A DNA stretch of 9,685 nucleotides from a virus (Duplodnaviria; Heunggongvirae; Uroviricota; Caudoviricetes), in the IMG/VR virus record IMGVR_UViG_2737471850_000009, positions 1 through 9,685 of that record; one strand, 5' to 3'. Positions within the stretch are counted from its first letter, which is position 1. The number at the start of each line of letters is the position of its first letter. The notes under the pieces were generated by a model. That model was not told where the DNA came from, did not search any database, and saw only the letters and a program-made list of their open reading frames with translations. The position numbers and the translations under genes are program-made. Positions 1 to 9,685 of the stretch are shown here, in pieces.

Positions 1-510
1 CGCGTCACGAATGGTTTTAATGCCGTAAATGCTCTTCATGGCGGTTACGCCCGCCAGTTCGTTGGCCGGGAATGTGCAGACACTGATTTCCCGCAGATAA
101 GTAATGTTTTTGAAAATGAGGCCGGACGTGCCGACGGTGTAATCGTCAGGGCCGACTGAAAAACCCACCGACATGCCTTCAACCGTGCCATGCTGCATGG
201 CGGCCTTCAGATCCTCGGCCAGGCTCAATCTGGGTGTGAGCTGCCCTCGGACATAAAGCCCCTTCTCGTCTTCGTGCATGGCATCCCATTTGCCAACCGG
301 GATGGCTCGCGTCTGGTGGTTGAAGAACATCGCCACCTTGCGGCTCTGGTTAGCCACCACACCAGCGAAAGCCCCGGGCAAAATAATGTCGCCGTCGGCG
401 TCGGTGTTATTGAAAACCGAGGCATACCCTTCAAACGTTCCCTTGCTGCCGTCGCCGGTGAACTTGATTTCGGTCTGGTCGAACGCCAGCGTCTTGTGAA
501 TATCAGGCAT
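1..510 (-). CDS. HK97-family prohead maturation protease (peptidase S78), N-terminal part; gene continues past the window start
   Basis: My own minus-strand translation from ATG at 510-508 stays open to position 1 (MPDIHKTLAFDQTEIKFTGDGSKGTFEGYASVFNNTDADGDIILPGAFAG...ISVCTFPANELAGVTAMKS...). The GDIILPGAF and FPAN motifs are typical of HK97-type prohead proteases. It sits directly downstream of portal. It is absent from the ORF track because there is no in-window stop. The start could instead be the in-frame ATG at 522. Confidence 0.8.
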   Translation of the reverse strand, partial: MPDIHKTLAFDQTEIKFTGDGSKGTFEGYASVFNNTDADGDIILPGAFAGVVANQSRKVAMFFNHQTRAIPVGKWDAMHEDEKGLYVRGQLTPRLSLAEDLKAAMQHGTVEGMSVGFSVGPDDYTVGTSGLIFKNITYLREISVCTFPANELAGVTAMKSIYGIKTIRDA

Positions 511-527
511 CGTGGCCCCCATAAAAA

Positions 528-1799
528 TTAAGCCCCGTCATTGCGGGGCTCTTTGTTTGTTCCGAGGTCGGTAATGGGAACGTTCTGCGACTGGCGCGTC
601 GCCACATCACCGCCAGGCAAAGGCGGAAGATTATCCAGTCGCCGCACTTCGTTAACGGTACGGATCCCTGTATTAACCATGGTTTGCATGAAGGTAGCGC
701 GGCTCGCTGAGTCACCACGAAGCAGGCCATCAAGGTTATGCTCGGCGTGCAGCCTTCCCTGATCGGACTCTTTTACCAGCCAGCGCTCTATGCTGTACTC
801 CCAGCGATCGAGATAGGGCTTCAGGGTGTACTGGAGAAAGCCGAGGTTCTGCTGTTCAATGCCGCTGCCCCATGAAGTTGTTTTTTCAACATCACCAACC
901 AGGTGCGGCGGAACACCGTAAAAGCGCGCCAGCTCTGCCACCTGAAACTTACGGGCCTCAAGCATCTGTGCGTCCTGCGGCGAGATGCCTATCGGCTGCG
1001 TGGTGAACCCGCTCTCAATGATCCAGAGGCGTTTTCTCACCGGGCCGCCGGCAATCTCCTTAAAGTTTTCCTCCAGCTGTCCGCGCTGCTCTTTGGTCAG
1101 CACCTTGCCGTCAGTCATCAGGATTTGCGGTGATTTGGCGCCGTTGGCGAAAAACTCCCGCTGGTTATCTTCCATAGCAATAGCCACGCCTGCAGATTTG
1201 GCGCTGAACGCCAGCGGCGATAACCCGACCAGCCCGTTAAAGCCGAAGCCTTTCAGGTGGAATATTTCTTTCGGCTTAAAGTCCACATACTCGCTGTCGC
1301 GCCGGTACCGGTAGATGACATTTTTTCCATCGAGCCGGACATCCATATTCGCGCTCATCAGCGGAAGCAGGCTGATGACATCGCCGACGCTGTTTCGCTC
1401 CACATGCGCGTAGGCATTGCCGTAGGCGCAAAGCTGCATTGTCATTGCCTCGCGAAACTCCAGCGCGGTCATGAAGTTGTTGGGCCGGAAGCGAAGAAGC
1501 TTCGCCAGCGGGTTCTGGTTGTCGACTTTCTTTCGCTGATCATCGATGGTTTCAAAAACATCCAGCGGTAACGAGGCTGTTACGGTGGAGATGAGCCGGA
1601 TGCAGGCCCATACGGTGCTGATCGACATGTTGCGCTCATCGCTCACCACCGATTCCCCGACGGTGCCGTGAGCTGATGTGCCCGCCATCTGCGAGCCATT
1701 ATCCGGTGAAACCAGGCGGCCACCGGTCAGAATAGAGGCCATGCGCGCCCAGAATGGCGATCGCGTTCGCAGGTCAATGCTGTAATCGGTATCTGCCAT
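528..1799 (-). CDS. Phage portal protein, HK97 family
   Basis: 423-aa ORF with the length and sequence character of HK97-family portals. Its ATG lies 2 nt after the terL stop (tight coupling). Canonical position between terL and prohead protease. Confidence 0.9.
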   Translation of the reverse strand: MADTDYSIDLRTRSPFWARMASILTGGRLVSPDNGSQMAGTSAHGTVGESVVSDERNMSISTVWACIRLISTVTASLPLDVFETIDDQRKKVDNQNPLAKLLRFRPNNFMTALEFREAMTMQLCAYGNAYAHVERNSVGDVISLLPLMSANMDVRLDGKNVIYRYRRDSEYVDFKPKEIFHLKGFGFNGLVGLSPLAFSAKSAGVAIAMEDNQREFFANGAKSPQILMTDGKVLTKEQRGQLEENFKEIAGGPVRKRLWIIESGFTTQPIGISPQDAQMLEARKFQVAELARFYGVPPHLVGDVEKTTSWGSGIEQQNLGFLQYTLKPYLDRWEYSIERWLVKESDQGRLHAEHNLDGLLRGDSASRATFMQTMVNTGIRTVNEVRRLDNLPPLPGGDVATRQSQNVPITDLGTNKEPRNDGA

Positions 1800-1801
1800 T
1801 T

Positions 1802-3334
1802 TTAAACGCTCAAAAAGTTGTAAATGAAATCGTTAACGTCGCCCGGATCCTCCACCTCATCACTGGTCTGTGCGCCGATAGACATCGCCAGCGCCACCAT
1901 GCCGTCGATACGGCCGCTCGATTTGCCTTTCACAAACTTGCGGTTACCGGCGGGGTCGGTGATTACCGTGGCGTTTTTGGCGCACATCTCGAGGATCGGA
2001 TGGTTGCCGTGCTTCAGTTGCGCGCCGAGCAGTTTAGCTTCCAGCTCCCTGAGCGCAGGCGACATGGAGACAAAACCCTGGCCGAATTCCACGAACCGCT
2101 CGAGCTCCGCCTCAGTGAAACCGGCGTCGATGAGATGCGGGCGAAGGAAGCGCATGTTGTAGCGGTCGAACGCCAGCGCCCGGACGTTACAGATATCAAA
2201 AACGCGCCGCAGCTCCCGTGCAATAAAGGCGTACTCAATGGCTTTGCCCGGCGTCGTGTTCAGCCAGCCCTGCTTCGCCCATATGTCATAAGGCACGCGA
2301 TCGTTACGCGCCTTGTCCGCCAGCCCCTCTTCAGGTAGCCAGAACTTACAGTGCACATCGCCCTGCGTTGTGTTGAGCACCAGCGCGGTCAGGTCCGACA
2401 CGCTGGAAAGGTCCAGCCCGCCCCAGACGGTAGCGCCCGCCAGTTCGCCAGGCTCTTCTTTGTTCATGTGCCAGACGGTCTGGCTGACGAACGGGCTTTT
2501 CGCCTCAACCCTGCGGTTCAGTACAAGGTTCTCAAATTCAGCCTGGCGCGACGGGAGGCGCTTGGCGCTGGCGGCCATATCCAGCACTTCTTTCTGGTTC
2601 ATGAACACATCGAAGGCCGGGTTAGCCAGCCTGATGGCTTCGACAGAGAAAGGATCGATATCTTCCGGCGCGGTCTGCAGCCGTACCACCGTTCGCGGAT
2701 CGGCACCGGTCAGGCCATCATCAATCAGCAGGCTGAGCAGGTCGCTCGCATCGGGTGCCTGGGTGCTGATGATTACCGAGATAGGGTTGTCCTGAGCAGC
2801 GGTCGCGGTTTCCAGAGCTTCATAAAGCGGGTCACGCGGCCCGCGCACCTGGCCCAGCTCATCATGGGCGACAAATCGCGGCGAGAAACCGTAGGCCGTT
2901 GTGGCCTCAGCGCTCAACGCGCGATAGTAAGAGCCCAGTTCAGGGCAGTGAATCTCTTTGGCTGAATCTTTTATGGCAACGTATTGCATCAGTGTCGGAT
3001 TCATACGACACATTTTCGAAGCAAGGTTAAACAGAATTGCTGCCTGATCGCGTGATCGGGCTGCGGAATACAATTGTGAGTTAGGCGCTGATTCGGGACC
3101 AACCAGATAAAGCAGCATGATTATCGCTGTCTCTACCGTCTTGGCGTTCTTTCGCCCCCTGCTGATAATCGCGCGGCGAGTACCATGCTCATTATCAAAT
3201 ATTGCTCTGAAGTCATCCTTCATGAAAGGAGCCATCTTCAGAGGCTGGCCTACGTACTTCCCTTCAGGGATCAGGATGTGTTTCTCACACCAGGCTATAT
3301 TGCGCTCAGCCCTTGTAAGCTTTTTTTTCGCCAT
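1802..3334 (-). CDS. terL: Terminase large subunit (ATPase/nuclease)
   Basis: 510-aa ORF with an N-terminal P-loop-like segment (ISRGRKNAKT) and a DE acidic box (FVAHDELG), followed by a nuclease-like C-terminal half. Lies directly downstream of the small subunit gene and upstream of portal. Confidence 0.9.
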   Translation of the reverse strand: MAKKKLTRAERNIAWCEKHILIPEGKYVGQPLKMAPFMKDDFRAIFDNEHGTRRAIISRGRKNAKTVETAIIMLLYLVGPESAPNSQLYSAARSRDQAAILFNLASKMCRMNPTLMQYVAIKDSAKEIHCPELGSYYRALSAEATTAYGFSPRFVAHDELGQVRGPRDPLYEALETATAAQDNPISVIISTQAPDASDLLSLLIDDGLTGADPRTVVRLQTAPEDIDPFSVEAIRLANPAFDVFMNQKEVLDMAASAKRLPSRQAEFENLVLNRRVEAKSPFVSQTVWHMNKEEPGELAGATVWGGLDLSSVSDLTALVLNTTQGDVHCKFWLPEEGLADKARNDRVPYDIWAKQGWLNTTPGKAIEYAFIARELRRVFDICNVRALAFDRYNMRFLRPHLIDAGFTEAELERFVEFGQGFVSMSPALRELEAKLLGAQLKHGNHPILEMCAKNATVITDPAGNRKFVKGKSSGRIDGMVALAMSIGAQTSDEVEDPGDVNDFIYNFLSV

Positions 3335-3347
3335 TCGCTAATCAGCC

Positions 3348-3782
3348 TTAATCAATTTCCCAGGGCTTTTTCTCCCGAGCCAGATTGCTGTTGGCCCGGC
3401 CAACAGTTTTGGGATCGGCAGTAGCCTGGCGGGTAATCCGCAGGCGGGTCGCAAGAGAAGATGCCGATCGCACCTCGCGCTCGCGCATCGTGAGCAGCCT
3501 GTCGTAGCGCTTCAGCCCGTCTTCGCGGGACAACCACTCGAGCTCAAACTCTTCAATCTGGGTGGTGAGCAGCCGGGCCTGCACCACATGCCGACAGTAC
3601 ATCTCCAGCATGTCCCGGTGTGTTTCGGTGAATGAGCTGGCCGGGTTGTCATTAACCAGCCGGACCCAGACGTTAATCTCCGGATCGCTCAGGTGAATGG
3701 ACGGCTGCAACCTGCTTTCAGCCAGTGCCGGCAGCGAGACAGCAGACGTCGCAGCCAGAGACTTTCTGCCTCGCTGTGCCAT
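3348..3782 (-). CDS. terS: Terminase small subunit (P27-like)
   Basis: Start chosen at the internal ATG (MAQRGRKSL...) at 3782, preceded by AAGGA about 9 nt upstream. The 44 codons upstream in the track ORF run through a poly-C/AT-rich noncoding-looking tract. About 144 aa, basic N-terminus, immediately upstream of terL. Confidence 0.65.
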   Translation of the reverse strand: MAQRGRKSLAATSAVSLPALAESRLQPSIHLSDPEINVWVRLVNDNPASSFTETHRDMLEMYCRHVVQARLLTTQIEEFELEWLSREDGLKRYDRLLTMREREVRSASSLATRLRITRQATADPKTVGRANSNLAREKKPWEID

Positions 3783-3914
3783 CGCGTTTTTCCTTTTTTT
3801 CTGGACGTTTTTAAAAATAAAACTGGGAGCGCGGTCTTTAAGAATTTGGTACCAGAGTTTTACCCCTCCCCCTCCCTTACCAACATAAATATGAGAATTG
3901 ATATCATTTCTCAA

Positions 3915-4124
3915 TTACGTGTAAGCTTGAGTGAGGTATGCCAGAGGGCACCAGACGATCACCAACGCCGATTGGCAATGTGAGGGTAATGGTAGGGTAA
4001 TGGTAGGCAGCATCTCACCGACCTCATGATTGAAGGAGACTGCAGTGGCATGTTTAAAGCTCACGCTATCAATGCTCAACTCAATCAACTTCCCATCACG
4101 GTATTCAATCTTCATGTCTTGCAT
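3915..4124 (-). CDS. Hypothetical small protein (doubtful); may be non-coding cos region
   Basis: ATG at 4124 is preceded by AGGAG with a 6-nt spacer, directly after the HNH stop. The reading frame runs through the 11-bp tandem repeat (translated as PTITLPLP) and ends only at 3915, so the C-terminal half looks non-coding. Confidence 0.25.
   Translation of the reverse strand: MQDMKIEYRDGKLIELSIDSVSFKHATAVSFNHEVGEMLPTITLPLPSHCQSALVIVWCPLAYLTQAYT
3984..4005. repeat. Tandem direct repeat, 2 copies of the 11-bp unit GGGTAATGGTA (followed by GG)
   Basis: Read directly: GGGTAATGGTAGGGTAATGGTAGG. Candidate terminase small-subunit binding repeats (cosB-like), by position. Confidence 0.85.
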
Positions 4125-4136
4125 CAACTACTCCTG

Positions 4137-4427
4137 TTACCAGATAACACGGCCTTCATTATCGAACTCGGTGACCGTTCCGCCCTTCTCCATCCTCTGC
4201 TTTACCGAGTCGTGGCAACGTTTGCAAAGTGACTGAAGATTATCCGGATCATGAAAGAGCCTATCGTCTCCTTTGTGCGGGATGACATGGTCAACGATCG
4301 TTGCCGCTATCACCTGATTGCGCCGGAGGTGGAACTCACAAAGAGGTTGCTTCTGAAGCTGGTGATAGCGGAGTCGGTACCAACGCTTGGAATTGTAGAG
4401 GCTATGCCAAGGTGAATTGGATGCCAT
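4137..4427 (-). CDS. HNH endonuclease (terminase-associated, phage type)
   Basis: 96-aa ORF with a Cys pair and His/Asn signature (CEFH...N...H...CKRCH) typical of small phage HNH nucleases. GGGAG SD about 8 nt upstream of the ATG. Positioned just upstream of cos and terS as in HK97-like phages. Confidence 0.85.
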   Translation of the reverse strand: MASNSPWHSLYNSKRWYRLRYHQLQKQPLCEFHLRRNQVIAATIVDHVIPHKGDDRLFHDPDNLQSLCKRCHDSVKQRMEKGGTVTEFDNEGRVIW

Positions 4428-4504
4428 GGTTAATCTCCCTCTGCATTGCTAAATCGCCAATTCCGGCTAACGGCGTGCCCAGGCTCACAGCTGAAAGACT
4501 TTCT

Positions 4505-4534
4505 TTGAAGTGCGCGTGAGATGCGCTTTATACT
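4505..4534 (+). promoter_or_regulatory. Putative sigma70-type promoter for the YkgJ-like gene
   Basis: TTGAAG (4505-4510), 18-nt spacer, TATACT (4529-4534), about 95 nt upstream of the ATG at 4630. Sequence-only prediction. Confidence 0.3.
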
Positions 4535-4629
4535 CCAGCAATAGCCGCCAGCAATGCCAGTAAGTATCAAATTACAAAATTATCTTTGTTCATTTTGTTG
4601 AGTGACACCTCAAAAAGGAGGCATGGGAA

Positions 4630-5163
4630 ATGAGTCTGGAAAAATTGCTAATCAAAGATAGAAAATGTGGTTCATGTTCTGTTTGTTGTAAATCCCTGAG
4701 AATCGAAGAGCCAGAGCTTAAAAAATTTGCTGGAGTGCCATGTCAGCATCTTAAAGCACAGGGCGGATGTTCGATTTATAATGATCGCCCATCTCTATGT
4801 CGTACGTGGTACTGCGGATGGAGAGTTTTAGGTATCGGTCCGGAAATGAGGCCTGATCGTTGTGGTGTTCTTATTCGCTTCGATGGCAAAGCTCTGTGCT
4901 TTCAGCCAGTAAATGATGGTCAAGTTACTACATTGCTTGATCCAGAGCCTTTACGTGTTTTAAGCAGTTCAATTGCAAATGGGATGACCGTTCAGATTTC
5001 GATTCCGACAAAAGAAGGCTTTTGCTCTTCAAATGTCGACGTTACAGCAGCTATGACCGAGGTAGTTAAAACCAGAGAGTTTGATAAGATTCGTGCAACT
5101 ATGATTGGATTAATTCAATTCGCTGCGAATTCGAAGACAGACCCGATTGCTCCTTTAAATTAG
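4630..5163 (+). CDS. YkgJ-family cysteine-cluster protein (CxxCxxCC putative Zn/Fe-chelating domain, UPF0153-like)
   Basis: 177-aa ORF with AAGGAGG SD 9 nt upstream. Carries CGSCSVCC (CxxCxxCC) and later GGCSIYNDRPSLCRTWYC, matching the two hallmark segments of the YkgJ/CxxCxxCC family. Opposite strand to all flanking phage genes and visibly AT-richer (sampled stretches roughly 32-43% GC versus the clearly GC-richer late genes). Confidence 0.75.
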   Translation: MSLEKLLIKDRKCGSCSVCCKSLRIEEPELKKFAGVPCQHLKAQGGCSIYNDRPSLCRTWYCGWRVLGIGPEMRPDRCGVLIRFDGKALCFQPVNDGQVTTLLDPEPLRVLSSSIANGMTVQISIPTKEGFCSSNVDVTAAMTEVVKTREFDKIRATMIGLIQFAANSKTDPIAPLN

Positions 5164-5171
5164 CATCCGAT

Positions 5172-5189
5172 GCCGGGGTTGCACCCGGC
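5172..5189 (+). terminator. Stem-loop immediately after the stop codon of the YkgJ-like gene (weak or atypical terminator)
   Basis: GCCGGG-GTTGCA-CCCGGC, a 6-bp GC stem with a 6-nt loop, 8 nt after TAG. No U tract on either strand, so not a canonical intrinsic terminator. Confidence 0.25.
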
Positions 5190-5557
5190 TTAACAAACGA
5201 GAAACATACGAATCGGTTGCAAATCTCAAGCAGCTCTTGTCTTTTAACATTAGACGATCGTTTCATTAGCATTTCATCTGATGTACTGAATAAGTTTTTC
5301 ATAAAACATTCCCATTCTAATTATCTAGGCTGCATTTAAATGCCTCACCACTTCCCGGAGTGGCCACGCTCATGCCCTTGAGTTGCTGTCGCTTCATCGC
5401 CGCTTATAACCGGTGCGCGTCTGGCGTTCGCGCTGCTCTACCGGAGCTTATTTTGATATAAGAACCTTGACCCGTCGCTATACAGGCTCGCTCAATGGCG
5501 ACTCAGGGCAGCATCATTACTGCTGCATTGCCTTTCGGCTGCGGTCTAACCGCTTTG

Positions 5558-5788
5558 CTACTTGATTTCGAGTTTCTCCTTCTGACAATTTGCCTGCCAC
5601 GCTTTGTTATGCGTCAGGATGTCGCGCTTGGTCTGCTTATCCAACACATCCCAGTCATTATCTGTTGCATAGATAGGATGAACCCAGTCGCACGCCGTAT
5701 CGACTACCTCAACCCTTACGGGTCCAGTTTGTGCGCAGCTCGCGATCAACGTCGTCGCCAGGCATATGATTAACTTTCTGCTGTACAT
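5558..5788 (-). CDS. o-spanin (Rz1-like outer-membrane lipoprotein)
   Basis: Internal ATG at 5788 (MYSRKLIICLATTLIASCAQTGP...) preceded by GAGAGG with a 6-nt spacer. Signal peptide with lipobox-like IASC. The gene begins inside the i-spanin gene in another frame and extends past it (overlapped architecture as in P2 lysB/lysC). The longer track ORF from 5959 is treated as an artefactual extension. Confidence 0.55.
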   Translation of the reverse strand: MYSRKLIICLATTLIASCAQTGPVRVEVVDTACDWVHPIYATDNDWDVLDKQTKRDILTHNKAWQANCQKEKLEIK

Positions 5789-5981
5789 TACTGGCCTCTC
5801 TGGTGACTTCTGCCTGACGTTCTGCCACTGCAACCTTCGCCGCTGCGTTTTCTTCAGTGCGTTGTTGATCGGCTTTCGCTTCTGCTTTGCTGGTTCCGCG
5901 AATATGGCCAAGACCAAACCCACCAGCAGCGGCAACACAGATAGCACCAATGACACCAATGATGATTTCTACAATGCTCAT
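5709..5981 (-). CDS. i-spanin (Rz-like; N-terminal TM helix plus charged coiled-coil periplasmic region)
   Basis: The ATG overlaps the endolysin stop (ATGA). N-terminal hydrophobic helix IVEIIIGVIGAICVAAAGGFGLG followed by an Ala/Glu/Lys/Gln-rich segment. Sits immediately after the endolysin. At 90 aa it is short for an i-spanin. Confidence 0.5.
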   Translation of the reverse strand: MSIVEIIIGVIGAICVAAAGGFGLGHIRGTSKAEAKADQQRTEENAAAKVAVAERQAEVTREASNVQQKVNHMPGDDVDRELRTNWTRKG

Positions 5982-6589
5982 GCAATCACCGCTTTCGCTT
6001 TGCCGTAACGCACGCGTCTGTCGTTAATGCCGTTCTGACCGCCATTGATAATCTGAGTGATGCGCACCAGGTCATCGGTGTACTTCAGGCAACCTTTGGA
6101 GGCGTAGAACCATGCAGCAGAACGCGCAGCATTGATGTCTTTCTCCAGCAGTTCAGGGTTAGTAACCAGGTCAAGCTTCAGACCATTGCCGCAATCACGG
6201 TAATTGGTGAGACCGGTAATCTGAATTAATCCGCGCCCACGGTATTTCCAGCCATCACCAGCAGCTTTATTACCCAGGCGGTTGCTGTATACCAGGTTCG
6301 CGATAGCTTCCTGACTTGCTGGCTTACCGTTGGCACGTCCAAGCATTGAGGCCTGGTAGTTCGTTACCCGGCGTCCAAACGTCGTCAGTAATGCGGCAGG
6401 CGTGTAGTTGAAGTTCTCCACCAGCGCAGAGAATCCCGCCGATTCATGTCCTACCTGAGCAATGAACATCGCCTTATCTTTTGGTTCAGTGATGCCGAAC
6501 TCTTTCATTGCATCCGTAATCGGCTGAAACCAGCGCGCAGCTAACCCGGCGCTAATTACAGCCGCCTGTTGAAATTGTGATTGGTTCAT
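5978..6589 (-). CDS. Endolysin, glycoside hydrolase family 19 (chitinase-like phage lysozyme)
   Basis: 203-aa ORF with GH19-type endolysin sequence character (e.g. FIAQVGHESAGF, KYRGRGLIQITG, INGG segments). Its ATG overlaps the stop of the upstream membrane-protein gene. Confidence 0.85.
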   Translation of the reverse strand: MNQSQFQQAAVISAGLAARWFQPITDAMKEFGITEPKDKAMFIAQVGHESAGFSALVENFNYTPAALLTTFGRRVTNYQASMLGRANGKPASQEAIANLVYSNRLGNKAAGDGWKYRGRGLIQITGLTNYRDCGNGLKLDLVTNPELLEKDINAARSAAWFYASKGCLKYTDDLVRITQIINGGQNGINDRRVRYGKAKAVIA

Positions 6590-6864
6590 TAATGCCTCAG
6601 CGTATCAACGAGACGCGCTACGTTCCCACGAGCCCATAAGACGGCAGCGCAAATAAGAAGGTTTACGATGACCACCATCCAGTGTGACTCCTGGTAGAGG
6701 CCAAACAGATATCGGAATGGAACGCTGGCATAAACCAGCACAACGAAGTACGCCAGCAATGATATAGCGGGGCGATGTCTTGCCCCTTCACGCTGGTAGA
6801 ACATCAGGACGATGACTGCACAAATACCTGCATTCACCATCGCTGACGGATCACTTGTTACCAT
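6589..6864 (-). CDS. Small membrane protein, putative holin/antiholin
   Basis: Start placed at ATG 6864 with GGAGG upstream (the track uses GTG at 6882). Two to three hydrophobic helices. Its stop overlaps the endolysin start. Confidence 0.5.
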   Translation of the reverse strand: MVTSDPSAMVNAGICAVIVLMFYQREGARHRPAISLLAYFVVLVYASVPFRYLFGLYQESHWMVVIVNLLICAAVLWARGNVARLVDTLRH

Positions 6865-7246
6865 TGCTGGCCCCTCCTCCACGGAATCGCGAAAGAATAC
6901 TGAACAGGCTTCCCAAATCCTGACTGTTGAAAAATGTGAGCACTTTGATTGTCATCGCCGCCACTACAACAGCACCAAGCGCGTCTAATGGTCTGTCACT
7001 GTACCCGGTAGCTTGTGACAACTTTGAACCAACCAGGCCAGCAGCAAGAACGCCAACAATGAATGACGTCATGAAGTAAGCAATCAGTCGTACTCGTGTG
7101 ATATTTGCCGCTGTCGCTACATAAAATACTGCACCAGCGAATGCGCCAAATACCACGCCATAATCAATACCGGTTGCGAGACCAAATACACTGGCTCCCA
7201 TCAGGCCACCAGCCGCGACCGTAGTGCCAGAAACAGGATCGGACAT
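6851..7246 (-). CDS. Phage holin-family membrane protein
   Basis: 131-aa ORF with Gly/Ala-rich transmembrane helices and a hydrophilic C-terminus. GAGGGGG SD upstream. It is the first gene after the late terminator, as expected for a holin. Confidence 0.6.
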   Translation of the reverse strand: MSDPVSGTTVAAGGLMGASVFGLATGIDYGVVFGAFAGAVFYVATAANITRVRLIAYFMTSFIVGVLAAGLVGSKLSQATGYSDRPLDALGAVVVAAMTIKVLTFFNSQDLGSLFSILSRFRGGGASNGNK

Positions 7247-7330
7247 TAAGCCCCCTCTTATTGCTGTGAGTCCTCTCAGAACGAGGGGAAAATAAAAAGG
7301 GCCACCAATTGGCAGCCCTCAAAACGCAAA

Positions 7331-7360
7331 AACCCGCACGATGGCGGGTTTCTTTTTGTT
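7331..7360. terminator. Intrinsic terminator (tR'-like), apparently bidirectional
   Basis: AACCCGC-ACGATG-GCGGGTT, a 7-bp stem, followed by TCTTTTTGTT on the plus strand and preceded by AAAACGCAAAA (a T-run on the minus strand). Lies between Q and the holin gene. Confidence 0.6.
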
Positions 7361-7399
7361 CTGTTGCTCAGTTCGCTTTAACGTCCCGAGCCTACCACA

Positions 7400-7428
7400 A
7401 TTTAAGCACTTTCTTGCTCACTCTGCAA
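7400..7428 (-). promoter_or_regulatory. Candidate late promoter (PR'-like) overlapping the 3' end of Q
   Basis: Minus strand reads TTGCAG, 17 nt, TTAAAT. The -10 overlaps the Q stop codon. The terminator lies about 40-60 nt downstream, giving the short leader typical of Q-dependent late promoters. Confidence 0.35.
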
Positions 7429-7980
7429 CTTAAATCTGTCGCTATTTGTGCCGAATGCGTCACAAACTGGAGCGTACAGGATCGATTCTGCTAGACTTAG
7501 CCAAGTGTCAATGCGACGACGGCAGGTGATCAGCGGCCAATCAGGGTGTTTAGCCTGCAGTTCATTGGCCATCTGCAACTTACTCTTACGTAGGCGATGG
7601 CGGTCGACAATCACGCTATAGAGCGATCGGTAGTCATCATTCATCAGTACAGAAGCAATGACTCCGTCAACTAACAACCCTTCTTCGTCTGAACAGAACG
7701 CCAGACCGCTTTTATTTTTGCTGTTGAGGATTTCACGCAGGTACGCTTCAAGTTCAGGCTTGGTGATACCTGATTTCTTCATGCGGCGCAGAGCATCATT
7801 GATAGCTGTCTTGGTGATTTTCCCGGATGCCAGAAGCTGGTTAAACATGTTCCCACCACTACCGCCGCCGATATAAGACCAGCGGCCCCACATGCGCAAC
7901 TTACCCTGTATCCAGATGCTTTCCAGAGTACGAAGACGAACCATTTCACCAGATTTACCAACTTCAGAAGGATTAATCAT
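7402..7980 (-). CDS. Late-gene antiterminator Q (phage 82 / QuuD-like family)
   Basis: 192-aa ORF with GGAGAA SD upstream. Segments RMWGRW and CSDEEGLLVDG...YSVIVD resemble the ERWGAW and Cys/Asp-rich blocks I recall from 82-type Q proteins. Position immediately upstream of promoter, terminator and lysis genes supports the call. Confidence 0.65.
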   Translation of the reverse strand: MINPSEVGKSGEMVRLRTLESIWIQGKLRMWGRWSYIGGGSGGNMFNQLLASGKITKTAINDALRRMKKSGITKPELEAYLREILNSKNKSGLAFCSDEEGLLVDGVIASVLMNDDYRSLYSVIVDRHRLRKSKLQMANELQAKHPDWPLITCRRRIDTWLSLAESILYAPVCDAFGTNSDRFKLQSEQESA

Positions 7981-7994
7981 TTAGCGTTCTCCAC

Positions 7995-8318
7995 TTACGC
8001 CAGTACGCCGATTGCCAGCGCACGATCTATAACCCGAAACATCAGGACCATCTGGTCACCGTATTTCGCTTCAAATGCCACAGGATCAGCATGCAACTCG
8101 TCGTGATGCTCTCTGCACAGAGGAATCACAAACAGGTCGTGTGCCTTTGTACCCATTCCACCCTGCCCGTGGCCAATCAGGTGGTGGGGGTCGTCAGCTT
8201 GCTTGTTACAGCAGACGCACAGCTGGGCCTTAACCCATCTCGTGTATTTCTCATTCACCCAGCGACGACGCTTGGGTTTAAGCATGAAGGATTCCGGTGT
8301 CTCCGGGTCTACCTTCAT
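7995..8318 (-). CDS. HNH-motif protein of nin-region type (DUF968 / Ref-like putative nuclease)
   Basis: CVCCNKQADDPHHLIGHGQGG...CREHHDELH shows a Cys pair plus paired His motifs. Sits immediately upstream of Q, as nin-region genes do in lambdoid phages. Start uncertain: GTG at 8324 (track), ATG at 8318, or ATG at 8285. Confidence 0.5.
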   Translation of the reverse strand: MKVDPETPESFMLKPKRRRWVNEKYTRWVKAQLCVCCNKQADDPHHLIGHGQGGMGTKAHDLFVIPLCREHHDELHADPVAFEAKYGDQMVLMFRVIDRALAIGVLA

Positions 8319-8790
8319 CGCCACTATCTTTTTCGCTTTCTCCTGTACCTTCGCTTATGCGGTTCAGGTTGCTGTTTTAGAAATTCGCGAAGCCCGTTGT
8401 AAGTACAAAGAACTGCAATCACAAAACGCAGACATGGCAGTACAGCTCGCTAACGCCGAGAGCAAGTGCAGGGAGCTGGCGTTGGAGAATGCATACATCC
8501 GCAACCGGTACAAAGAACTGGACTTGTTAATCGGGAAAAACATCCTGGTCATGCAGGCAGCGATTATCGAATGGCAGGCAACTGGCGACGCTAAGAACGG
8601 GCTGTCATGGATTTATAACACCCTGTTTGGGCCTAGTGAATTGCCTGACGAATCTGAGAAAGATGCTCAGGCCTACTTTGACCGCAAATATGCACCGATT
8701 AACGAAGAGTTGATGGCACTTCACAAGTGGTTTTGGGAACAAAGTGAAGTTGAACGTGCCGCCGCTGGCATTGGCGTGAAGGGGGAGTGA
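8284..8790 (+). CDS. Hypothetical protein: N-terminal hydrophobic helix plus coiled-coil-like region
   Basis: First ATG of the track ORF (which begins at a TTG at 8203). MKDSGVSGSTFIATIFFAFSCTFAYAVQVAVL is followed by heptad-like KYKELQSQNADMAVQLANAESKCRELALENAYIRNRYKELD. The antisense frames look like junk. No family recognised. Its 5' end overlaps the 5' end of the divergent DUF968-like gene. Confidence 0.5.
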   Translation: MKDSGVSGSTFIATIFFAFSCTFAYAVQVAVLEIREARCKYKELQSQNADMAVQLANAESKCRELALENAYIRNRYKELDLLIGKNILVMQAAIIEWQATGDAKNGLSWIYNTLFGPSELPDESEKDAQAYFDRKYAPINEELMALHKWFWEQSEVERAAAGIGVKGE

Positions 8791-8791
8791 G

Positions 8792-8965
8792 ATGGCAGAA
8801 CGCTGGAAGATTCTCCTGCTAATAGCATTTATTTTTTTGACGGTCATTCCAGTAAGCATGGTGGCCGTGAAGGTTTATGTGTCTCCATGGCTGCTAATTG
8901 CAGGTCATGCAGGCGCAATGCTTTTCGGTTTTATATGCGCTGAGCTCGCGCGGAAGGATTACTAA
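8792..8965 (+). CDS. Small hydrophobic protein (57 aa, two predicted TM helices)
   Basis: Not in the ORF track (under 60 aa). ATG 8792 preceded by GGGGGAG. Translation MAERWKILLLIAFIFLTVIPVSMVAVKVYVSPWLLIAGHAGAMLFGFICAELARKDY. The stop lies 3 nt before the recombinase ATG, in the same frame. Confidence 0.4.
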   Translation: MAERWKILLLIAFIFLTVIPVSMVAVKVYVSPWLLIAGHAGAMLFGFICAELARKDY

Positions 8966-8968
8966 CCC

Positions 8969-9685
8969 ATGACAACTAACAACCACCCGGCGAACGGTCC
9001 TGTATCACTCGATCGGCTGCACCAGATACGCGAAATACTCAGCAAAGCAGCAGCACAAAGCGACGGCGGTAATCTCGGCTACGCAATGGCTGATGCTGTG
9101 AAGGTGATTGATGGGGCAATTGCTGAGTTTGGTAACCCATGCGTAGGCGTCGATAAATACCCTAAACCTCAGCGCGACCGATACATTACGGATGAAGAGT
9201 ATTTAGCAATTTATGACTGTGCTACTGATCCGGTAAAAGCCGCAATGGAAATTGCTTATCTCTGTGCAGCGAGGGTTTCCGATGTTCTGAAAATGGACTG
9301 GAATCAGATAATGGATAAAGGAATTTTCATTCAACAGGGTAAAACTGGAGTTAAGCAGATTAAAGCGTGGACAGACCGCTTGCACTCCGCTGTCAATCTT
9401 TGCAGGAAATCAGGGGAAGATGGCGCTGTCATCAAAACCATGTACGGAGAGCGATATTCCTATAAAGGTTTCAATGAAGCCTGGAGAAAGGCTAGGAATG
9501 CGGCTGCTGAAAAAATTGGCAGACCGTTAGACTGCACGTTCCATGATCTGAAGGCGAAAGGCATTTCTGACTATGAAGGAAGTGGCCGTGATAAGCAAAA
9601 ATTCAGTGGTCACAAAACTGAATCACAGGTGTTGGTATACGACAGGAAAGTAAAAATTAGCCCAACTTTAAACAGAAAAATGTGA
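8969..9685 (+). CDS. Tyrosine recombinase, lambda-Int-like catalytic domain only (arm-binding domain absent)
   Basis: 238 aa. Aligns by eye to the C-terminal ~250 residues of lambda Int (RYITDEEYLAIY...ARVSDVLKMDW...QQGKTGVK...TFHDLK...GHKTESQVLVYDR versus lambda LTADEYLKIY...QRVGDLCEMKW...SKTGVK...TFHELR...GHKSDTMASQYRD). The catalytic Arg-I, Lys, His and Tyr are present, but Arg-II is Lys. Ends with a stop at the window edge. Confidence 0.8.
   Translation: MTTNNHPANGPVSLDRLHQIREILSKAAAQSDGGNLGYAMADAVKVIDGAIAEFGNPCVGVDKYPKPQRDRYITDEEYLAIYDCATDPVKAAMEIAYLCAARVSDVLKMDWNQIMDKGIFIQQGKTGVKQIKAWTDRLHSAVNLCRKSGEDGAVIKTMYGERYSYKGFNEAWRKARNAAAEKIGRPLDCTFHDLKAKGISDYEGSGRDKQKFSGHKTESQVLVYDRKVKISPTLNRKM

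Follow-up and report, generated by a model that had tools for sequence, protein, structure and literature searches.

How does an integrase-like gene come to lie within 1 kb of the nin-region gene that adjoins a late antiterminator Q, with no intact early genes in between? The question is raised by the right end (7995–9685) of the window analysed here, a stretch of 9,685 nucleotides of viral DNA. The initial annotation had counted about 0.7 kb and two small genes between the int-like gene and the DUF968 gene. This spacing is correct: the start of the DUF968 ORF (8324) is 644 bp away from that of the int-like ORF (8969), with ORFs at 8203/8285–8790 and 8792–8965. Measured by homology, the interval from the DUF968 stump to the true int sequence is 784 bp (8350–9133). 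We are highly confident that this region belongs to a defective lambdoid prophage that occupies serU, a tRNA-Ser gene of an E. coli/Shigella chromosome, that it lies at the attL end of the element, and that two separate deletions, arising by illegitimate recombination, shaped it. The prophage combines an HK97-type head and packaging module, Q-dependent late control and an ST64B-type integrase. Gene stumps and no intact early genes lie between Q and the window end, as follows.

6851–7246: first holin (from the ORF list).
7297–7320, minus: terminator-like hairpin with a T-run, between Q and the first holin (consensus scan only).
7402–7980, minus: Q-like late antiterminator, intact, 192 aa (DUF1133/Phage_antitermQ, Pfam E = 1.7e-92; PHROG 753, 'anti-termination protein Q-like').
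7995–8349, minus: DUF968/HNH-like nin-region gene, 3′ stump, last 118 of 329 codons (Pfam, PHROG 96).
8349/8350: junction J1, read as a deletion scar, between the divergent stumps DUF968′ (minus) and ea22-family′ (plus).
8350–8790, plus: ead/Ea22-family early-left-operon gene, 3′ part (PHROG 18739 positions 290–414 of 416; PHROG 250 positions 209–320 of 367).
8792–8965, plus: small hydrophobic ORF of 57 aa, apparently full length (PHROG 4918 positions 2–55 of 59, E = 1.1e-22).
8969–9133, plus: early-left-operon ORF (PHROG 6144), first 55 codons; intact length 200–281 aa.
9133/9134: junction J2, read as an in-frame deletion scar with imperfect GG(T/C) microhomology; the 55-codon stub is fused to int codon 146.
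9134–9685, plus: ST64B-type tyrosine integrase, catalytic-domain stump, corresponding to residues 146–329 (BLASTP, Pfam).

The minus strand carries, in order, Q, the terminator-like site (7320–7297), the holins, a GH19 endolysin, a spanin-like ORF pair, HNH, TerS, TerL and portal. This is the lambdoid late-operon arrangement, in which Q, a leader with a terminator-like site, lysis genes and packaging genes follow one another on one strand. Many intact prophages encode an identical Q protein. The two holins, GH19 endolysin, HNH, TerS, TerL and portal genes are all full-length ORFs in the window; the spanin-like pair was recognised from ORF translations alone, without a family match. The earlier description of the lysis and packaging modules as complete therefore holds for the window, but the element as a whole has lost tail genes outside it. 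The hairpin at 7297–7320 is a candidate tR′-type terminator at which Q may act. Consensus scans found no sigma-70 promoter upstream of Q or of the plus-strand ORFs, which is a weak negative. They also found no terminator-like site on the serU strand ahead of the int stump, so low-level read-through into Q from the serU side is possible. A tRNA scan of the window found none, no Rfam family matched anywhere in the window, and repeats in 7900–9685 were of chance size only, with no att-like or IS ends.

Each of the four genes that meet at the two junctions is shorter than its full-length homologues, and similarity drops sharply at the breakpoints. The retained parts are 118 of 329 codons of DUF968, all but 37 codons of the ea22-family gene, 55 of the 200–281 codons of the PHROG-6144 ORF and 184 of 329 codons of Int. 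On the Q side, ORF 7995–8324 (minus) matches PF06147 at profile positions 67–171 of 171 (E = 2.6e-58), and the stump matches PHROG 96 at positions 217–334 of 334. The stump lacks a start codon and the first ∼211 codons; the annotated GTG start at 8324 falls within the homologous coding region, and no full-length protein of ∼326–329 aa with its own start is encoded. E. coli FAM21845 has a full-length version of this gene, of 329 aa, and Klebsiella phage KpF5 has one of 326 aa. Similarity to ten intact prophages with an identical Q ends at 8349 in nine and at 8348 in the tenth. J1 was compared base by base with FAM21845 (L024) on its left side and with IMG/VR contigs L038–L040 on its right side, and no microhomology was seen relative to these comparators.

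Beyond J1, the ea22-family gene lacks its own start and first 37 codons, and the listed ORF 8203–8790 takes its start from antisense DUF968 sequence. In L038–L040, 37 codons (MTATNKPMTGAQLDELMAVAMRMQSDSEKMGERSVSI) precede the residue at 8350. Positions 8485–8794 are 90% identical to the ead/Ea22-like gene of mEp460, and the 57-aa ORF occupies the place of the small ORF that follows that gene in mEp460 (synteny with gp29-gp28-gp27). The 55-codon stub shares 93% aa identity with residues 1–55 of a 227-aa gene in FAM21845 (L024, 23112–23795), which is followed by exonuclease, xis and int. The PHROG-6144 ORF lies directly upstream of a 3′-5′ exonuclease gene in intact relatives, and L038–L040 also have a PHROG-6144 gene followed by an exonuclease.

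E. coli ES8 and Citrobacter meridianamericanus give the best DNA matches to 8485–9133, and in both the matching genes belong to the nin region, between replication and Q and on the strand of Q. A nin-region origin of 8350–9133 with inversion was considered and rejected, as the segment is co-oriented with int. It is also countered by the same genes in the left operon of FAM21845 and L038–L040 and, for the Ea22-like gene only, of mEp460 and ST64B. We prefer a left-operon origin of 8350–9133 because of the co-orientation with int and the left-operon synteny; it needs only two deletions. For 8485–9133, this origin is suggested by orientation and synteny (L024, L038–L040, mEp460, ST64B), not by a unique match.

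J2 was likewise compared base by base, with L024, L025 and L018 for the left parent and L003, L004, L022 and L027 for the right parent. The int-like ORF 8969–9685 (plus) is a chimera in which int makes up codons 56–238 only. BLASTP aligns its residues 55–237 with residues 146–328 of the 329-residue ST64B Int at 83% identity, the stump has 87% aa identity to the Int of Klebsiella phage KpF5, and the Phage_integrase domain (PF00589) is matched over residues 72–226 (E = 1.6e-11). The initial annotation had called this gene an integrase fragment, which it contains, but the ORF itself is an in-frame fusion that keeps a native start codon. Residues 1–145 of the 329-aa Int are exchanged for 55 unrelated residues, and no full-length integrase is encoded. 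Because of this replacement, int pseudogene or int fusion is the proper label for the ORF, rather than integrase. The arm-binding and core-binding domains that att recombination requires are N-terminal in lambda Int; by analogy, the lost residues 1–145 would correspond to these regions. Of the conserved catalytic set R...K...H-x-x-(R)...H...Y, candidates for the R, H and Y residues are seen in the translated stump, and HDLK stands where the second Arg is expected. All 17 other members that align without a gap share this K, including ST64B and KpF5 and down to 47% identity (one family member has a gap at the motif), so we regard it as a family trait and not a lesion.

BLAST gave the impression of a site-specific int breakpoint at 9131–9134 shared by the window, the L027 type and E. 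coli HS. We rejected this reading: the L027 and HS sequences run further into int, by 72 nt and about 24 nt, respectively, and the breakpoint appears shared because the window stops being int there.

Searches of the window with Pfam and PHROGs identified no homologue of a repressor, Cro, replication protein, N or xis. The claim that no immunity or replication genes lie between the int fragment and the nin/Q region is thus upheld; the early genes seen there are stumps. No cI/cro-type immunity or replication genes were found elsewhere in the att-bounded element either. We consider the element defective because immunity, replication and nin genes are absent, an absence that does not contradict lambdoid ancestry. 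In all ten intact prophages with an identical Q, the 329-aa DUF968 gene is preceded by ANT/KilA, RusA, MT-A70, replication, CP76/cII-like, Cro-like and S24 repressor genes. From DUF968 to int, intact relatives carry antirepressor, RusA, methylase, replication, cII/cro/cI, recombination, exonuclease and xis genes. The comparison with intact relatives that the initial annotation had proposed thus puts 9.5–11 kb of early genes between DUF968 and int (9.5 kb in KpF5), compared with 0.78 kb in the window. FAM21845 matches both sides of the gap in the orientation seen in the window, at 97.8% for Q-DUF968 and 95.8% for the 55-codon stub; there, Q-DUF968 and the stub gene are 10.2 kb apart, with exonuclease, xis and int after the latter.

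The breakpoints, truncations, host flanks and intact comparators are observed directly, and from them we infer the order and mechanism of the deletions. Deletion 1, of about 9.5 kb, with its scar at 8349/8350, would extend from DUF968 codon ∼211 leftwards to codon 37 of the ea22-family gene in the distal left operon. It would have crossed the antirepressor, RusA, methylase, replication, cII/cro and cI genes and the proximal left operon, where a ParB-like gene lies. Deletion 2, of about 1.9 kb, with its scar at 9133/9134, would have taken the rest of the PHROG-6144 ORF, the 3′-5′ exonuclease, xis and the first 145 int codons. Together, the two would have removed about 10–11 kb containing the immunity, replication, recombination and excision genes. 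The deletion origin proposed earlier is retained in this model, with two deletions in place of one. The sizes are estimates from mosaic relatives because the exact parental prophage was found neither among the E. coli genomes nor in the phage collection. None of 5,426 complete E. coli genomes covers more than 42% of 7400–9685, so the exact element is absent from this set, and only one covers at least 80% of 1–7400, at 87% identity.

The flank beyond 9685, where the initial annotation had advised looking for att sites and host genes, could be read in L035 (GCA_000819325.1), which is 100% identical to the window. There, 115 nt separate the int stop from the tRNA-Ser(cga) gene serU, after which come mtfA, asnT and yeeJ, and the host flank is 99.4% identical to E. 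coli HS. The window-type junctions are also carried by GCA_012072605.1. Since serU and host genes stand directly beyond it, the int stump is terminal, not internal, and adjoins attL. The arrangement named by the initial annotation as a refutation, with repressor and replication genes immediately past 9685 and an internal int, was thus looked for and did not appear. In the sister variant L027, the tRNA 3′ end is repeated directly over 63 nt at attR; the host genes next to it encode Ni_hydr_CYTB and ZinT domains and are taken to be yodB and zinT. In the window-type strain, attR falls just outside the retrieved locus, and its position was estimated by offset. The element is thus chromosomal and lies between att repeats, with int adjoining attL. 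Together with the truncated junction genes and the intact relatives, these host flanks support the earlier suggestion that a cryptic prophage has been stripped of its early region.

Between near-identical strains, large deletions that arose independently have taken away Q, the holins, tail genes, the tailspike and a portion of the endolysin. L027, L032 and L034 carry the same prophage (99.97–99.99% identical) and keep 72 nt more of int, which is joined to the interior of the endolysin gene; this is an independent deletion. The window-type element is ∼19 kb long and has HNH-TerS-TerL-portal-protease-capsid but no tail-shaft genes. Its missing tail genes point to a recent deletion because sister strains, 99.9–100% identical, retain the tape-measure and other tail genes. 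The attR end holds genes for O-antigen modification, of gtrABC-like and acyltransferase type. In every case in which this end is visible, the gtr genes are retained (L027 and L029 types; partly in L031, L032 and L034, whose contigs end within the gtr cluster). Compared with phages, this cargo gave gtrA/gtrB matches of only about 77%, and no known serotype-converting phage was among them.

Other origins of this arrangement must be weighed against deletion from a single prophage. The int′-ea22′ part could be the remnant of an older serU prophage and the DUF968′-Q-late block could come from a second phage, the two having been joined after tandem lysogeny or by illegitimate recombination. In its favour, mosaicism is pronounced in lambdoid genomes, the best Q-DUF968 relatives (FAM21845 and others) carry a different, 437-aa integrase, and further int stumps of this family occur at serU next to unrelated late regions, E. 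coli HS being one case. However, KpF5 unites the int type and the packaging module of the window in one phage, both flanks of the gap have matches in FAM21845 with the orientation kept, and sister variants have a longer int contiguous with the same late genes. We therefore judge recombination between prophages very unlikely; either route would end in a defective remnant that lacks early genes. The alternative raised by the initial annotation, a mosaic junction, taken as part of a working phage, is at odds with the truncation of all four junction genes. For the same reason, hardly any credence can be given to a functional phage or satellite, such as a capsid-forming PICI, in which int beside Q would be the normal order. 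The length of ∼19 kb, the capsid and packaging genes and the missing tail-shaft genes lend it a superficial likeness to such satellites. Capsid-forming PICIs, though, have intact int, regulatory and pri-rep modules and capsid/packaging genes without lysis genes. Here, Int is truncated, xis is absent, no regulatory or replication module lies between the att sites, a full Q-lysis cassette is present, and sister strains carry tail genes.

A chimeric contig of unrelated prophage pieces would also produce abrupt junctions; prophage repeats often break or mis-join short-read assemblies, and some contigs here end inside the tRNA. Both junction strings, however, occur exactly in eight loci from six samples, namely four NCBI assemblies and two Logan runs, which were assembled independently and are each represented twice. 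The contigs that carry them include some of 130–190 kb reaching host DNA on both sides. An artefact of assembly or of the window is thus extremely improbable. Selection might instead have kept the element as a domesticated one, for its gtr/acyltransferase cargo, for the Q-lysis-capsid block or for the chimeric Int-domain protein, for example against incoming serU phages. Such domestication would supplement the deletion origin, not replace it. The gtr genes retained at every visible attR end, the uninterrupted late ORFs of the window and the in-frame int fusion with its native start all speak for it. Against it, independent large deletions among near-identical strains indicate ongoing decay rather than conservation, and consensus scans found no promoter for Q or the fusion ORF; on balance, we think it unlikely. 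Actual expression and use by the host of the chimera 8969–9685 or of the promoter-less Q-lysis-capsid block is a decidedly long shot. Expression might then come from read-through starting at serU, which is directed into the element along the Q strand; no terminator is predicted in between. If this were true, the host could be using the remnant, as a domesticated module, to block integration or excision of ST64B-type phages at serU or for controlled lysis.

Deletion from a single prophage, the reading we prefer, has several consequences. The element should be incapable of repression, induction and replication. It should also be unable to excise because xis is gone, as are the N-terminal 145 residues of Int, which by analogy with lambda Int would be its arm- and core-binding part. 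Q is left without its usual pR-type promoter, and the lysis and packaging genes, although intact, are thus probably not expressed. With xis, the first 145 residues of Int and the replication and tail genes all missing, we infer that the element is non-inducible and forms no plaques. It should be scored as a non-inducible remnant, not as a prophage, and annotation of the locus should treat the 'integrase' at the window end as a pseudogene or fusion and the DUF968 and ea22-like ORFs as fragments.

Prophage decay by such deletions is an ordinary, well-known route, and the locus leaves the current understanding of prophage biology unchanged. What it provides is a base-resolved case of decay by successive independent deletions among near-identical strains, in which the O-antigen-modifying cargo at the far end is what survives in most variants. 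Close parallels are found in E. coli K-12, above all DLP12 and also Rac, Qin and e14, which are defective lambdoid remnants fixed at chromosomal att sites. Remnants of the DLP12 type have, like the window element, had immunity and replication genes deleted and have kept int-proximal pieces, Q, lysis genes and part of the packaging module; they form no phage unaided, as should also be true here. The window element differs in its site (serU, rather than argU, ttcA or icd), its truncated and fused ST64B-type integrase, its HK97-type head module, the lack of IS elements in the region studied and the gtr/acyltransferase cargo.

Intact phages with this integrase type are Salmonella phage ST64B and Klebsiella phage KpF5, whose Int catalytic domains are 83–87% identical in aa to that of the window. 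Both are complete temperate genomes of 38–40 kb with repressor, replication genes, xis and an Int of 329–330 aa; compared with them, the window element lacks about 10 kb, from int codon 146 to DUF968 codon ∼211. In ST64B, the left operon ends with an ead/Ea22-like gene, a 277-aa ORF, exonuclease, xis and int. KpF5 shares 84% nt identity with the window over TerS-TerL-portal, and both have the DUF968-Q pair. The identical-Q E. coli prophages (e.g., FAM21845, CP017220; ET5, CP101014) have the holin and GH19 endolysin layout of the window. Their Q-DUF968 DNA is 89–98% identical to that of the window in nine prophages and 97.8% in FAM21845, whose left-operon PHROG-6144 ORF is 95.8% identical over the retained 166 nt. 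Unlike the window element, these prophages have a full early region, another integrase and, in part, other packaging modules.

The E. coli HS remnant at serU resembles the window in layout, with a truncated int of the same family beside serU that abuts a truncated late-region gene, and no early region. It is an independent event: its int breakpoint is different (579 bp are kept), its int DNA is 79% identical and its late genes are unrelated. Close relatives of the Int stump adjoin tRNA-Ser(cga) in other enterobacterial genomes as well, and int stumps of the ST64B-type family appear to accumulate at serU.

The element belongs with the defective lambdoid prophages of E. coli, a kind long known from DLP12, Rac, Qin and e14, and is a new instance of it. 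It carries two deletion scars and four truncated genes, and every early function has been lost. Its intact analogues are Salmonella phage ST64B, Klebsiella phage KpF5 and prophages of the type found in E. coli FAM21845. The minus strand of the window is a lambdoid late region with genes in the usual order, followed by a short stretch of plus-strand ORFs:

528–1799, minus strand: portal
1802–3334, minus strand: TerL
TerS, minus strand
4137–4427, minus strand: HNH endonuclease
about 5560–5980, minus strand: overlapping spanin-like ORF pair (from ORF translations only)
5978–6589, minus strand: GH19 endolysin
6851–7246 and 6589–6882, minus strand: two holins
7320–7297, minus strand: predicted terminator-like hairpin (sequence scan)
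7402–7980, minus strand: Q-like antiterminator (DUF1133, E=1.7e-92; PHROG 753)
7995–8324, minus strand: DUF968 ORF, upstream of Q
8203–8790, plus strand: ORF
8792–8965, plus strand: ORF of 57 aa (PHROG 4918)
8969–9685, plus strand: int-like ORF with a Phage_integrase (PF00589) match at residues 72–226

The initial annotation described spacing and content correctly: 644 bp separate the DUF968 ORF from the int-like ORF, and no look-alikes of a repressor, Cro, N, O/P or xis lie between them. Its reading of a cryptic prophage that has lost its early region is borne out by the scars, the truncated genes and the early genes kept in intact relatives; the loss took two deletions, however, not one, and the int ORF is itself chimeric.

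The DUF968 match covers only profile positions 67–171 of 171; the full-length genes of FAM21845 and KpF5 encode 329 and 326 aa, respectively. Looking up the exact Q protein gave ten intact prophage contexts, all with a 329-aa DUF968 gene preceded by early genes: an ANT/KilA antirepressor, RusA, a LexA-like gene, an MT-A70 methylase, a replication protein, cII-like (CP76) and Cro-like genes, an S24 repressor and leftward-operon genes, which in seven of the ten include a 346-aa ParB-like gene. Similarity to the window stops at exactly 8349 in nine of these prophages and at 8348 in the tenth, at about codon 212 of DUF968. On the other side, 8485–8794 is 88–94% identical to ead/Ea22-like genes, and 8350–8481 is 93–96% identical to a gene in three IMG/VR contigs (L038–L040), with similarity starting exactly at 8350. 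The ea22-family gene of these contigs has 37 extra upstream codons (start MTATNKP...) and is located after a ParB-like gene. Because similarity breaks at 8349 on one side and at 8350 on the other, we place the first junction (J1) at 8349|8350, where there is no microhomology relative to the comparators. By sequence comparison, the DUF968 and ea22-like ORFs are both 5′-truncated and meet at J1. The start codon of the ORF at 8203–8790 is antisense DUF968 sequence, and this ORF is an accident of the join. Since the two stumps diverge from the scar, both promoter-proximal ends and all that lay between were lost together, about 9.5 kb on the scale of intact relatives.

The int-like ORF aligns as a fusion. 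Its residues 55–237 are 83% identical to residues 146–328 of the 329-aa ST64B integrase (87% for KpF5 Int), while residues 1–55 are non-integrase and match residues 1–55 of a 227-aa gene of FAM21845 (L024, 23112–23795) at 93% identity. That gene stands in the leftward early operon, followed by a 3′-5′ exonuclease, xis and int; in L038–L040 the same gene, at 200–281 aa, is likewise followed by the exonuclease. Base-by-base comparison with the parents places the second junction (J2) at 9133|9134: the sequence of the left parent is ...TTTGGT|GCTGAG, that of the right parent, represented by this prophage in the sister variant L027, is ...CCAGGC|AACCCATGC, and that of the window is ...TTTGGT|AACCCATGC. 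The join is in frame, at an imperfect GG(T/C) microhomology, and removed the remainder of the left-operon ORF, the exonuclease, xis and int codons 1–145 (about 1.9 kb on the FAM21845 scale). At 9539–9550 the int stump encodes HDLK, with lysine in place of the second catalytic arginine of lambda-type integrases (H-x-x-R). The motif of the ST64B-type family is H-D-[L/I/N]-K (window; comparison loci L003–L017, L022, L036 and L037); the lysine is kept in all 17 other distinct members aligned ungapped there, among them ST64B and KpF5, at identities as low as 47% across Gammaproteobacteria, and one Raoultella MAG sequence has a gap at the motif.

For the 784 bp retained between the scars, some of the best DNA matches (E. 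coli ES8, Citrobacter meridianamericanus) are small nin-region genes on the Q strand. In the window, the small genes run in the same direction as int and diverge from Q. Their order (ea22-family gene, small ORF, PHROG-6144 ORF, then (exonuclease, xis) int) agrees with the left operon of FAM21845 and with L038–L040, and more loosely with the left operons of mEp460 and ST64B, whose third genes belong to other families (DUF551 and sb31). Gene order and orientation fit a left-operon origin, which we adopt because it needs only two deletions; a nin-region origin would require an additional inversion and was set aside. The 57-aa ORF, uninterrupted between both scars, is strongly hydrophobic.

The window ends exactly at the stop codon of the int fusion, with the attachment site and tRNA just outside. 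Its full length matches GCA_000819325.1 (L035) at 100% identity, and five other contigs match it at 99.9–99.99%. Past the int stop, L035 has a predicted intrinsic-terminator-like hairpin and then, 115 nt from the stop, the 3′ end of tRNA-Ser(cga) (serU), convergent with int; mtfA, tRNA-Asn and a yeeJ-type adhesin gene lie beyond. From asnT through mtfA to serU, identity with E. coli HS is 99.4%, so the host is E. coli or Shigella, and the int stump lies at the end of the element, adjoining attL. Close integrase relatives in Pseudescherichia and Enterobacter also adjoin serU. attR is marked in L027 by a second copy of the 3′ end of the tRNA, a 63-nt direct repeat 14.4 kb away; it lies just past a gtrA-gtrB-gtrC-like cluster, beside host genes that we interpret as yodB and zinT and that have Ni_hydr_CYTB and ZinT domains. 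Judged by offset, the window-type element would measure about 19.4 kb. The initial annotation would have been refuted by early genes directly past the window and an internal position of int; this was checked, with a negative outcome. No regulatory or replication genes were called anywhere between the att sites. At its attR-proximal end, outside the window, the element has a tailspike gene, an Acyl_transf_3 acyltransferase gene and, for O-antigen glucosylation, a gtrC-gtrB-gtrA-like cluster (L029 14266–21179; L027 15333–18712). The gtr genes are present wherever this end was fetched, even with tail genes and tailspike gone, and matches to this cargo in the phage database show only about 77% identity.

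Three forms of this prophage were seen, 99.9–100% identical in shared parts. The first (L026, L028, L030) has J1 and J2 and still carries the tape-measure and other tail genes. The second, the window type (L029, L031, and L035 as far as its contig reaches, which is short of the tail-gene region), also has both junctions. Lysis and packaging genes are in the window as annotated, but outside the window the element is not complete on its late side: another 4.2 kb of tail genes, for the assembly chaperone and tape measure (L030 12046–16276), is missing from L029 and L031 but kept in near-identical strains, and the scar has a 15-nt overlap. The third form (L027, L032, L034; 99.97–99.99% identical) lacks J1 and J2. 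Its int stump (L027 4658–5257) is 72 nt longer and joined directly to the endolysin interior (near L027 5282; cf. window 6518 and 9134), Q and both holins are gone, and it keeps head-completion genes absent from the other forms. Since it retains int sequence lost in the window type, the deletions arose independently from an ancestor that was more complete. Breakpoints at the head-tail boundary fall within 5 nt of each other across all forms. The pattern indicates decay, not conserved architecture. E. coli HS (L036 11480–12802) has a 579-bp int stump of the same family at serU (79% nucleotide identity), unrelated in origin, which directly abuts a truncated late gene with an unrelated terminase and no early region; Enterobacter sp. 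kpr-6 combines an int stump with two copies of the att core, separated by 8.3 kb. serU thus seems to collect decayed prophages with ST64B-type int.

The deletions would have arisen by illegitimate recombination, J2 at 2–3-nt microhomology and J1 blunt relative to comparators. Excision presumably fails, since both xis and the first 145 residues of Int are missing; judging from lambda Int, that N-terminal part would contain the arm-binding and core-binding regions. The element presumably could not replicate either, and pR-type transcription that normally reaches Q would be lost. Given that loss, and as a consensus scan found no promoter upstream of Q, the lysis and packaging genes, though intact, are probably not expressed. 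serU is transcribed toward the prophage on the strand of DUF968′, Q and the late genes (L035 1910–2115), and the consensus scan found no terminator-like site on the tRNA strand before the int stump, only a hairpin for the int strand (L035 2103–2080); read-through from serU into Q may therefore occur. The least ordinary reading, in which the host would express and use the Q-lysis block or the in-frame fusion with the Int domain, is highly improbable. A PICI or other satellite was rejected because there is no regulatory or replication module, int is truncated, a lysis cassette is present and sister strains carry tail genes.

A 177-aa Cys-rich ORF (4630–5163, plus strand) lies between the lysis cassette and HNH/TerS, opposite to both, in a local GC trough (0.42–0.46 versus 0.51–0.57 nearby). 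It has a weak CxxCxxCC zinc/iron-chelating match, under the Pfam cut-off, matches PHROG 9155, and is called at only 105 aa in some near-identical strains; from these features it looks like a moron.
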